From: Candidatus Cloacimonadales bacterium
GTDB taxonomy: Bacteria > Cloacimonadota > Cloacimonadia > Cloacimonadales > JAFGVF01
NCBI GenBank assembly: GCA_963677495.2
Contig: CAXXOU010000001.1
Span: forward strand, 384,001 to 448,000
Direction of reading: 5' to 3'
Length of the DNA stretch: 64,000 nucleotides
Within the stretch, counting starts at the first letter, position 1. Each line of letters starts with the position of its first letter. This document shows positions 15,234-16,263 of this stretch, piece after piece. The notes below the pieces were generated by a model. The model made no database searches, was not told the DNA's origin, and saw only the letters and a list, made by a program, of their open reading frames with translations. The translations under genes and the position numbers were made by a program.

Positions 15234-15983
15234 ATGGTATTAACATCAGAAATTCTTAACATCGCTGCTTTCATTGGCGCAGCTATCGCAACAGGTGTAG
15301 CATCATTGAGTGCAGGTATAGGTGAAGGGCAAACAGCAGGTGAAGCTTCATTTGCTCTTATGCGTCAGCCAAAAGCAGGAGATGGACTTCTCAGAACCAT
15401 GCTTATCAGTCAGGCAGTAACAGAGACAGGTGCGATATTCGGACTTGTTGTTTCATTGCTTCTGATATTCAGTGGACTGAATAATCCGGATGCAGGTTGG
15501 TTTAGATTCGGAACTCTCTTAGCTGCCGGTTTATCAATCGGTATCGGTAGTATAGGACCCGGATTCGGTTCAGGTTATACCGGAGCAATTTCTTGTCGCT
15601 CAATAGGTAGAATGCCGGATCAACAGAATAGAATCACAACGACTATGTTAATCGGACAGGCATTAGCACAAACAGATGCTATCTTTGCTCTCGTTGTTTC
15701 TCTTCTATTACTCTATTCTACACCAATAACCCCTGTAGCTGCTACAGCAGGGCAGATTATAATGAGAATCTGTGGGTATGTTGGAGCATCTCTTGCTATC
15801 GGTATCGGAACATTCGGACCGGGGATCGGTATCGGATATGTAGCCGGACGTTCAACTGATATGCTTGGTCGTTTTTCAGCTCAAGGCTCAACAATTACAA
15901 GAACTATGTTCCTCGGGGCAGCAGTATCAGAATCAACTGCTATCTATGCACTCGTTGTAGCATTCCTATTAATATTTATATAA
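15234..15983 (+). CDS. atpE: F0 subunit c, triplicated (three hairpins, six TM)
   Basis: Three c-repeats ending QAVTETGAIF / QALAQTDAIF / AAVSESTAIY, each with a GxGxGxG inner helix and R-x-P/S loop. Confidence 0.92.
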   Translation: MVLTSEILNIAAFIGAAIATGVASLSAGIGEGQTAGEASFALMRQPKAGDGLLRTMLISQAVTETGAIFGLVVSLLLIFSGLNNPDAGWFRFGTLLAAGLSIGIGSIGPGFGSGYTGAISCRSIGRMPDQQNRITTTMLIGQALAQTDAIFALVVSLLLLYSTPITPVAATAGQIIMRICGYVGASLAIGIGTFGPGIGIGYVAGRSTDMLGRFSAQGSTITRTMFLGAAVSESTAIYALVVAFLLIFI

Positions 15984-16023
15984 ATGAAAATAAAGAAAAA
16001 TAAAAACCTATACGGAGGTAAGA

Positions 16024-16263
16024 ATGGAACAATACATTGCTAAAGCAGCAGCTCTCTTAGGAGCAGGTATCGCAATGGGAATCGGAGCTCTCGGACCAGG
16101 ACTCGGTGAAGGATTTGTAGCAGGAAAAGCTTGTGAAGGTATCGCACGCTCACCTGAACATGCCGGTCTTATTACTAGAACTATGCTTATCGGTCAGGCT
16201 GTTTCTGAGTCAACCGGTATCTACTCACTCGTTATCGCACTTCTTCTTATTTTTACAACATAA
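16024..16263 (+). CDS. atpE: F0 subunit c, single hairpin, Na+-type two-carboxylate motif
   Basis: PGLGE29...RSPE...E62-S63-T64..Y67. Confidence 0.96.

Follow-up and report, generated by a model that had tools for sequence, protein, structure and literature searches.

We analysed a window of 64,000 nucleotides (positions 384,001 to 448,000 of contig CAXXOU010000001.1, assembly GCA_963677495.2) from a Candidatus Cloacimonadales bacterium; the window means this whole stretch of DNA, and positions are counted from its first letter. Positions 13533-21517 of the forward strand carry all genes of an F-type atp operon, in the canonical order (ATPase_gene1, AtpI, a, c3, c, b, delta, alpha, gamma, beta, epsilon). 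Two genes for subunit c sit between atpB (subunit a) and atpF (subunit b), in an operon that also has delta and epsilon. The first encodes a fused subunit with three hairpins, which we call c3, and the second encodes a single-hairpin c. We consider it likely that c3 is a genuine rotor subunit that forms one heteromeric, Na+-coupled ring with the 79-amino-acid c of the sole F1Fo enzyme of this organism, and that it lowers the Na+/ATP ratio.

The ion/ATP ratio set by the c-ring is a basic bioenergetic number, and the two-hairpin c1 of Acetobacterium woodii and Clostridium aceticum is the sole characterised bacterial route to less than one ion per hairpin. What is new here is a putative hybrid F-type rotor with a three-hairpin c that occurs across an anaerobic phylum and belongs to the sole rotary ATPase of this genome. 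The two genes and their parts are the following:

15234..15983, forward strand: c3, fused three-hairpin (six-helix) subunit c, 249 amino acids; three ATP-synt_C stretches, E 6.1e-40
15234..15479, forward strand: c3 hairpin 1, amino acids 1-82, E31 / E64-T-G..F, loop R44-Q45-P46; two-carboxylate site
15495..15728, forward strand: c3 hairpin 2, amino acids 88-165, S113 / Q146-T-D..F, loop R126-M-P128; ion-binding position without a carboxylate
15747..15980, forward strand: c3 hairpin 3, amino acids 172-249, I200 / E233-S-T..Y, loop R213-F-S215; carboxylate, no helix-1 ligand
16024..16263, forward strand: single-hairpin c, 79 amino acids, E29 ... E62-S-T-G-I-Y; one ATP-synt_C, E 7.2e-18

The first-pass annotation, made from the letters of this DNA, had placed two adjacent atpE genes of 249 and 79 amino acids in an F-type ATP synthase. 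Pfam bears this out, with three and one ATP-synt_C domains in the two open reading frames (ORFs) and a complete F-type operon around them. The residues that had been named (E31, E64, T65, S113, Q146, T147, D148, I200, E233, S234, T235 and Y238) are all in place. Pairwise identity is 35-43% among the hairpins of c3 and 42-49% between them and the single c. A carboxylate in the middle of the outer helix of every hairpin is expected of a subunit c; in c3, E64 and E233 are present and hairpin 2 has Q146 at this position. The F1-contact loop of the form R/K-x-P is intact in R44-Q-P46 and R126-M-P128. Furthermore, the single c carries the Na+ motif E29 ... E62-S-T-x-x-Y, and subunit a keeps the stator arginine (R278 in RLFGN). 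The genome (3.41 Mb in 4 contigs, 99.46% complete) holds four ATP-synt_C domains, all of them in c3 and the single c. Thus, the atp operon encodes its sole rotary ATPase.

Conservation of c3 across the Cloacimonadota

A word-indexed protein search with c3 found 459 proteins at E <= 0.001. Among the matches listed (the best 120 of the 459), 115 are 242-257 amino acids long and the other five are 404-405 amino acids long; all of the 115 that carry an organism name belong to the Cloacimonadota/Cloacimonetes. One protein that is 86% identical to c3 bears the name Candidatus Zophobacter franzmannii. In addition, we examined 201 genomes spread evenly over 16 families of the phylum, with a match threshold of E <= 1e-10, and c3 had matches in 111 of them. 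In 14 families, 109 of 110 genomes matched, two of them (G145 and G195) at single-hairpin strength only. Family f3 had a match in one of 88 genomes, again to a single hairpin, and family f6 in none of two. All five f3 and f6 genomes that we checked carry a two-domain V/A-type c instead, in frames of 166-183 amino acids, and the F-type hairpin profile aligned the V/A-type c of both families poorly. The Cloacimonadota are thus split into F-type lineages with c3 and V/A-type lineages. Family f3 is the largest sampled family (88 genomes), and f3 and f6 are both without the c3 F-type enzyme.

The fused gene is maintained where it occurs. No full-length c3 match across the sampled phylum contains an internal stop, and the single c follows directly after c3 in 50 of the 52 Cloacimonadota loci that we read out. 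These 50 single c proteins all have E-S-T-G-I-Y, and their helix-1 residue is Glu in 45 and Gln in five. At the other two loci (L057 and L061), no single c was found in any frame within ~1.3 kb, the span to which the search was confined. When compared with two congeners, the ratio of non-synonymous to synonymous substitution rates (dN/dS) was 0.043 and 0.055 for c3 and 0.031 and 0.035 for the single c. Taken per hairpin, dN/dS of c3 was 0.03-0.10, the Glu-less hairpin 2 included. We conclude that c3 is not decaying and that purifying selection is strong in all three hairpins. The first-pass annotation had named degeneration and lack of conservation in relatives as observations that would speak against its reading; the per-hairpin ratios and the conservation across the phylum show neither.

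The synonymous divergence (dS) differs between the two genes, with 0.37 for the single c and 1.31 for c3 against the nearest congener, and 0.83 and 1.63 against the second. The low dS of the single c might be due to tighter constraint on the codons of a subunit expressed at a higher level, or to chance in a gene of 79 codons.

To place the hairpins relative to each other, we inferred a tree from 125 hairpins and 80 columns, among them hairpins of c3, of the single c and of the Desulfobacterota fusions described below; this was a quick search on a short alignment, which limits the resolution. The second hairpins from 24 Cloacimonadota genomes form one clade (support of 99 in the Shimodaira-Hasegawa-like approximate likelihood-ratio test, SH-aLRT), and the third hairpins form another (91). 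The single c proteins cluster together, and so do the first hairpins except for one outsider. As each hairpin position forms its own group, the fusion predates the sampled diversity of the phylum.

Ion-site residues and the predicted contact with the single c

We calculated column conservation from 116 c3 sequences, which stem from related genomes and are thus not independent. Two of the three residues whose survey the first-pass annotation had proposed turned out to be characteristic of c3: Q146 is kept in 113 of the 116 proteins and I200 in 109. The third, D148, is lineage-specific; it is present in just 17, each time alongside E233, and Ser takes its place in 91. The carboxylates themselves vary. 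E233 is found in 99 proteins and replaced by Gln in 17, E64 is found in 72 (Gln in 38, Gly in six) and E31 in 62 (Ser in 40). The two residues of the first site change together, with E31 accompanied by E64 in 62/62 proteins and S31 by Q64 in 38/40. The residues of hairpin 3 that follow the carboxylate are nearly invariant (S234 in 116/116, T235 in 113/116, Y238 in 114/116). This also holds for the loops: Q45, P46, R126 and P128 are found in all 116 proteins and R/K213 in 115. The third loop reads R213-F-S215 in the window protein, and Pro occupies the 215 position in 100 of 116 relatives.

Counted per protein, the ion-binding positions of c3 hold two carboxylates in 59 of the 116 proteins, which is the state in the window, one in 47, none in seven and three in three. 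The two-Glu state that had been described from this DNA is hence one of several, and the number ranges from 0 to 3 among relatives. For instance, complete 1.6-Mb genomes of family f13 encode a c3 without any carboxylate, whose last hairpin reads Q-S-T-A-[VI]-Y, together with a normal single c. As the lineages differ in the loss of ion sites, they offer a natural series of 0, 1, 2 and 3 carboxylates in which to test how many blind positions are tolerated. This series bears on how a ring moves past subunit a when a carboxylate is missing, and on the relation between Na+/ATP and energy limitation.

The conserved S-T-x-x-Y motif of the last hairpin can be read against published Na+ sites. In Ilyobacter tartaricus, Glu65 and Gln32 of one subunit pair with Ser66 and Val63 of its neighbour, and in NtpK of Enterococcus hirae, Glu139 and Gln110 of the second hairpin pair with Thr64 of the first (PMC2359735). 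In Fusobacterium nucleatum, the adjacent subunit supplies Ser66 and Val63, with Tyr70 and Thr67 in support (PMC3692424). According to this geometry, the hairpin that donates ligands is the one that precedes the carboxylate hairpin.

We counted the motif in the Cloacimonadota loci and in an independent set of Desulfobacterota loci with fusions of four to six hairpins (see below); the sequences are related, so the counts describe a pattern and involve no formal test. The last hairpin of c3 has S-T-x-x-Y in 113/116 proteins. The motif is retained in all 24 proteins without a carboxylate in the last hairpin itself, and in all 44 whose hairpin 1 has no carboxylate. In these 44, the next subunit must thus be the single c. 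The motif is absent from all 168 first hairpins. Among internal hairpins of the Desulfobacterota fusions, those with [ST][ST]xxY have a carboxylate hairpin after them in 24/25 proteins (8/9 distinct patterns), compared to 6/249 (3/84 distinct patterns) for those without the motif. The reverse pairing, in which the motif would serve the preceding hairpin, is negatively associated in this set. The last hairpin has the motif in 78/78 Desulfobacterota proteins, including 48/48 without a carboxylate of their own. An initial count over all multi-hairpin proteins (173 patterns) was confounded by a family of ~320-amino-acid four-hairpin proteins without Na+ motifs, and we therefore repeated it on the two defined loci sets. 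The conservation pattern fits the preceding-hairpin geometry and not its reverse, and the ligands of the last hairpin speak for a heteromeric ring shared by c3 and the single c.

Structure prediction gave a compatible picture. The AlphaFold2 model of c3, built from a 41-row alignment, has six helices in three hairpins (predicted local distance difference test, pLDDT, 94.8; predicted template modelling score, pTM, 0.89). The top PDB match in Foldseek is the A. woodii c1 chain 4bem_J (E 9.8e-8, 32% identity), with a template modelling (TM) score of 0.81 on c1 and 0.60 on the query; NtpK of E. hirae and c subunits of eukaryotic V-ATPases come next. No PDB chain found by Foldseek covers all three hairpins of c3 (TM-score on the query <= 0.60). 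When searched by sequence, the best PDB chain is again 4bem_J (E 4e-25), whose second, Glu-less hairpin aligns to hairpin 2 of c3. Other F-type c chains score 1e-10 to 1e-14 (3zk1: 4e-13) and V-type chains ~1e-5. The comparison with A. woodii that the first-pass annotation drew is thus supported by both sequence and fold.

A complex of c3 with two copies of the single c was predicted with a score of 0.62, compared to 0.03 for the best of three controls; the mark we applied is reached by 116/157 solved complexes and 2/215 mismatched pairs. Between runs, at least 96% of the contacts recur, and the pLDDT of the partner does not fall below 79. In this predicted complex, the contacts of c3 are confined to residues 4-78 and 171-249, with one c on each flank. 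One c lies at S234-T235, residue 236, Y238 and their neighbours. On the other flank, c3 residues 20-33 (including E31) and E64 meet S63-G65 and Y67 of the other c.

The proposed mixed ring and the alternatives to it

The direct observations behind our reading are the gene anatomy, the conservation, the purifying selection, the positional motif logic and the predicted c3-c interface. From these we infer ring membership, stoichiometry, Na+ use and energetic consequence; among these, that c3 joins the ring and lowers the ion/ATP ratio is a well-supported inference. In the mechanism that we propose, each ion site would lie between neighbouring hairpins, with the carboxylate and a helix-1 ligand coming from one and S/T, S/T and Tyr from the preceding outer helix. 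Position 1 would be a full two-carboxylate Na+ site (E31/E64), completed by the S-T-Y of the preceding subunit. Position 2, with Q146, would be ion-blind, and hairpin 1 offers it just the degenerate T65-G66..F69. Position 3 may be an atypical site that combines E233 with T147/D148 of hairpin 2; here Ile occupies the helix-1 position, and Phe151 stands where Tyr is expected. Hairpin 3 itself has S234-T235-Y238, which can serve only the next subunit and would complete the site of the following single c.

When such a ring rotates past subunit a, Na+ would be loaded and released as usual by hairpin 1 and by each single c, while the neutral Gln of hairpin 2 would pass the stator arginine and the lipid without ion exchange; hairpin 3 may carry an ion via its modified site. 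A ring with fewer translocated ions than hairpins would thus lower Na+/ATP, as in A. woodii. Purely as an illustration, if 11 hairpins made up the ring and one c3 were part of it, there would be 10 carboxylate sites in this organism and eight in the relatives whose c3 has no carboxylate. A three-fold symmetric ring, (c3-c)x3, is conceivable as well. The fusion would lock the blind hairpin or hairpins into one contiguous block. In the Bacillus PS3 enzyme, a single-chain c10 with linked hairpins is reported to form working rings that tolerate impaired sites, and activity dropped further as two mutated sites were moved apart (eLife 2022). This drop would be a reason to keep blind hairpins adjacent in one chain. 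We speculate that the fusion, which persists with 0-3 carboxylates, has a structural role as well, for instance in assembly nucleation, ring size or the register of gamma and epsilon.

Several points weigh against a mixed Na+ ring with a lowered ratio. The E233 site is probably not a standard Na+ site, judging by the missing helix-1 ligand (I200) and the missing +5 Tyr of the preceding hairpin (F151). Lacking these two canonical ligands, it may be inactive, have a weak affinity for Na+ or bind H+. If a ring contains just one c3, Na+/ATP would shift little in this organism. The motif argument would also be compatible with contacts between two c3 proteins where hairpin 1 keeps its site, as it does here, and the related genomes overstate the statistical support of the motif counts. 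Furthermore, the success of the complex prediction may reflect likeness to the solved structure 4BEM and not binding. Lastly, site loss and pairing with a single c are not universal, as the three-carboxylate c3 proteins (3/116) and the loci without a single c within 1.3 kb (2/52) demonstrate.

The remaining genes of the operon, all on the forward strand, are the following:

13533..13823, forward strand: ATPase_gene1 (AtpZ-like), small membrane protein, first gene of the operon; Pfam PF09527, E 3.5e-15
13820..14197, forward strand: AtpI (ATP synthase I chain); Pfam PF03899, E 4.6e-06
14208..15221, forward strand: subunit a, 337 amino acids, with an N-terminal extension of ~100 amino acids; Pfam PF00119, E 9.3e-47, residues 138-330
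16311..16787, forward strand: subunit b; Pfam PF00430, E 2.4e-25
16790..17323, forward strand: subunit delta (OSCP); Pfam PF00213, E 1.2e-28
17339..18844, forward strand: subunit alpha; Pfam PF00006, PF00306, PF02874
18865..19719, forward strand: subunit gamma; Pfam PF00231, E 7.7e-95
19738..21135, forward strand: subunit beta; Pfam PF00006, PF02874
21128..21517, forward strand: subunit epsilon, C-terminal helical domain present; Pfam PF02823, PF00401

The N-terminal extension of subunit a (14208-14620) occurs phylum-wide. It is rich in Lys at its start, adds a hydrophobic helix and shows a motif resembling IGxNPETGKF ... LQxKIxEEFQPDxY; among 43 complete upstream ORFs of Cloacimonadota loci, subunit a is 276-427 amino acids long. 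The subunit a of Desulfatibacillum alkenivorans has 231 amino acids, and the extension is not seen in the Desulfobacterota subunit a. Thus, it is not tied to a multi-hairpin c as such. Directly downstream of the operon, a 1899-amino-acid ORF lies on the opposite strand (21794-27493, reverse strand). It has a hydrophobic N-terminal start and many repeated segments (e.g. ...TYYW.V... units) and looks like a large secreted or surface protein.

The alternative that survives best keeps the mixed ring and changes its direction. The enzyme would mainly act as an ATP-driven, V-type-like Na+ pump in a fermenter that lives by substrate-level phosphorylation, and the blind hairpins would steepen the Na+ gradient per ATP. 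A low number of ions per ATP makes it easier to pump against a steep gradient (Eq. 1 argument, PMC9171764), two Cloacimonadota families have swapped the F-type enzyme for a V/A-type c, carboxylate-less c3 proteins exist in complete 1.6-Mb genomes, and related metagenome-assembled genomes (MAGs) have been described as fermenters. The genome, however, carries two Rnf/Nqr-type loci, two OAD_beta genes and one membrane pyrophosphatase (the NqrA_N domain was not found in the genome), and these primary Na+ pumps would build a gradient for synthesis. A Na+ gradient for ATP synthesis has been proposed for the related MAGs. In addition, epsilon retains its C-terminal regulatory domain, and ATP synthesis at low driving force is known both for enzymes with V-type c and for the A. 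woodii hybrid (PMC9171764). We regard a pump as the less probable direction, with about one chance in its favour for every three against.

It is considerably less probable that the two genes serve two kinds of rotor, namely a homo-ring of c3 (e.g. four copies with 12 hairpins) and a separate ring of single c, which would give two enzyme populations with different ion/ATP ratios. Each of the two proteins has every feature of a ring subunit, three-carboxylate variants of c3 exist, and the S-T-Y of hairpin 3 could here equally complete the E31/E64 of another c3. In the 44 relatives with a carboxylate-less hairpin 1, however, a ring of c3 alone would aim the retained S-T-x-x-Y at a dead site, and the motifs that do face dead sites, in hairpins 1 and 2, have degenerated. 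The genes are also adjacent in 50/52 loci within one operon, and the solved A. woodii ring (4BEM) is mixed.

Marginally weaker still is the proposal that c3 stays outside the mature ring and instead templates or chaperones assembly, or is a c-derived regulatory membrane protein. That the number of carboxylates varies freely between 0 and 3 indicates that ion binding by c3 is not essential, and assembly may be a theme of a locus that also encodes ATPase_gene1 and AtpI, the latter a c-ring assembly factor in other bacteria (PMC7911925). But the cytoplasmic loops of c3 keep the R/K-x-P of a working c, its last hairpin keeps the ligands for a neighbour's site and selection on it is as strong as on c. 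The predicted complex moreover puts a c on both flanks in a ring-like register, and the nearest solved relative, c1, is a ring member. Finally, a decaying paralogue or an artefact joining three tandem atpE genes, which the hairpin without the essential Glu could suggest, can practically be dismissed given the uninterrupted ORF in relatives, dN/dS of 0.04-0.06, the old fusion in the hairpin tree and the confident AlphaFold2 model. We thus retain a mixed ring of c3 and single c as the likely arrangement.

Multi-hairpin subunits c in other lineages and in known enzymes

An exhaustive profile-free search of 1.84 billion representatives returned 1245 matches to c3 at E <= 0.001, of which 66 have E <= 1e-30. 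The top 150 of the 1245 include proteins with 2 to 15 hairpins. Named examples of multi-hairpin c are a 405-amino-acid five-hairpin form of Dethiosulfatarculus sandiegensis and three-hairpin forms in a Desulfobacterales MAG and a Margulisiibacteriota MAG. A scan of species genomes with an alignment of five-hairpin proteins found 484 relatives, and we analysed the best 80 loci. These carry Desulfobacterota-type titles except for two 'Bacteriovoracaceae' MAGs and a few generic ones ('Proteobacteria', 'Pseudomonadota', 'uncultured bacterium'). Cultured organisms among the best 80 loci include Desulfocarbo indianensis (SCBM), D. alkenivorans (DSM 16219) and Desulfatitalea alkaliphila (M08but). A multi-hairpin c is followed by a single c in 78 of the best 80 loci, with four hairpins plus one in 45, five plus one in 24 and six plus one in nine. 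In an even sample of the phylum, 24 of 251 Desulfobacterota genomes have a multi-hairpin c at E <= 1e-25. We found no description of the Desulfobacterota four- to six-hairpin c in the literature; it is known from sequence records.

The Desulfobacterota proteins resemble c3 in gene order (ATPase_gene1, AtpI, a, the multi-hairpin c, c, b; in D. alkenivorans ATPase_gene1, AtpI, a, c4, c, b, b') and in the logic of their hairpins, with E/E in the first, Gln in the internal ones, S-T-x-x-Y in the last and a single c with E...ESTGIY. They differ in having 4-6 hairpins compared to three in c3. The three cultured genomes that we checked also each hold a further single c gene elsewhere (G201 C35, G202 C1:450086, G203 C78), which suggests a second F-type or N-type enzyme, whereas the operon in the window is the sole enzyme of its genome. 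In the hairpin tree, the first, internal and last hairpins of the Desulfobacterota group with hairpins 1, 2 (SH-aLRT 95) and 3 of c3, respectively. This suggests common descent or transfer; convergence under the same constraints is also possible.

Further multi-hairpin proteins were noted among the matches. Polypeptides with 15 hairpins (P0193 and P0304, 1139-1147 amino acids) from Promethearchaeota/Hodarchaeota MAGs and one with 12 hairpins (P0168, 968 amino acids) have a Glu in every hairpin. The 15-hairpin form exceeds the 13 hairpins of Methanopyrus kandleri c (PMC2359735). About 60 representatives (P0190-P0284, ~310-325 amino acids) form a four-hairpin c family with the pattern Q|..ET.., S|..QTP.IF, L|..ETP.IF, S|..D/ET..IY, and this family is without the Na+-type S-T-Y logic.

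In the parts of the literature available to us, bacterial F-type c is described as a single hairpin with the exception of the two-hairpin c1 of A. woodii and C. aceticum (PMC9171764, PMC7911925), and subunits with three or 13 hairpins are described for archaeal A-type enzymes only (PMC2359735). A search of the full-text literature, mostly outside subscription journals and preprint supplements, found no paper on an F-type c with at least three hairpins; the first-pass annotation likewise named no characterised example of this arrangement. Two recent preprints on c-ring diversity (2024 and 2026) describe none either in the passages searched, and one of them filtered out sequences of more than 250 amino acids. 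A survey that takes one hairpin per c for granted, or that filters long c sequences, will miscount sites and ring sizes in these lineages.

A broader interpretation can be offered tentatively, with somewhat worse than even prospects. Multi-hairpin c subunits could be widespread, unrecognised adjustable rotor blocks of bacterial Na+ F-type enzymes, in which the first hairpin has its own site, the internal ones are blind and the last does no more than donate ligands; they would sit in the ring between ordinary c subunits. The number of hairpins (3-6) and of carboxylates (0-3 in Cloacimonadota) would then set Na+/ATP, and the fusion, by holding blind positions together, would limit the kinetic cost. 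As the hairpins group by position across both phyla, such blocks would go back to one ancient origin or to transfer and not to repeated invention. In this genome, D148 beside E233 would be a second type of two-carboxylate site, one that spans two hairpins. The fusion may also fix the ring size or the register of the central stalk. The presence of the 4-6-hairpin versions in cultured sulfate reducers makes bench study possible.

Two known enzyme classes were considered for the operon and rejected. The N-ATPase operon has the order atpDCQRBEFAG; it starts with beta and epsilon, contains AtpQ and AtpR and has no delta. The order I-a-c3-c-b-delta-alpha-gamma-beta-epsilon with an OSCP/delta gene rules this class out. 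Acquisition of an archaeal A-type proteolipid by transfer is ruled out by F-type c chains, which score far above V-type chains, and by the F-type operon.

Among characterised systems, the triplicated proteolipid of Methanocaldococcus jannaschii and other methanogens has six helices but only two carboxylates. This methanogen A1AO proteolipid is like c3 in its three fused hairpins (PMC2359735); it belongs to an archaeal A-type operon, whereas c3 belongs to an F-type operon, is of F-type descent and is accompanied by a separate single c. The c11 ring of F. nucleatum (3ZK1/3ZK2) has Glu32/Glu65, like E29/E62 of the single c and E31/E64 of c3 (PMC3692424), but it is built from identical single hairpins that each have a site, unlike the mixed ring proposed here. 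The fused c10 of PS3 is a laboratory construct of an H+ enzyme with E56D rather than a loss of the carboxylate, and in this it differs from c3.

The ring of A. woodii has a stoichiometry of 9:1. The Na+ F1Fo of A. woodii and C. aceticum (PDB 4BEM) is the best match to our system by sequence and fold. Both have an F-type operon with AtpI upstream and a multi-hairpin c followed by a single c with the Na+ motif. In c1 as in c3, Gln has replaced the carboxylate of one hairpin, and S/T-T-x-x-Y is kept for the neighbour. They differ in that c1 has two hairpins and one site, whereas c3 has three hairpins and two carboxylates, and thus departs from the hybrid type in the strict sense. The blind hairpin is the last in c1 and the middle one in c3, and only c3 has a third, atypical site (I200/E233 with T147/D148). 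Furthermore, helix 1 has Glu in c3 and Gln in the A. woodii system, and the hairpins of c3 and c are 35-49% identical compared to 58% in c1 of C. aceticum (PMC7911925). The reduced Na+/ATP of A. woodii and C. aceticum has been read as an adaptation to life at low energy (PMC9171764, PMC7911925).

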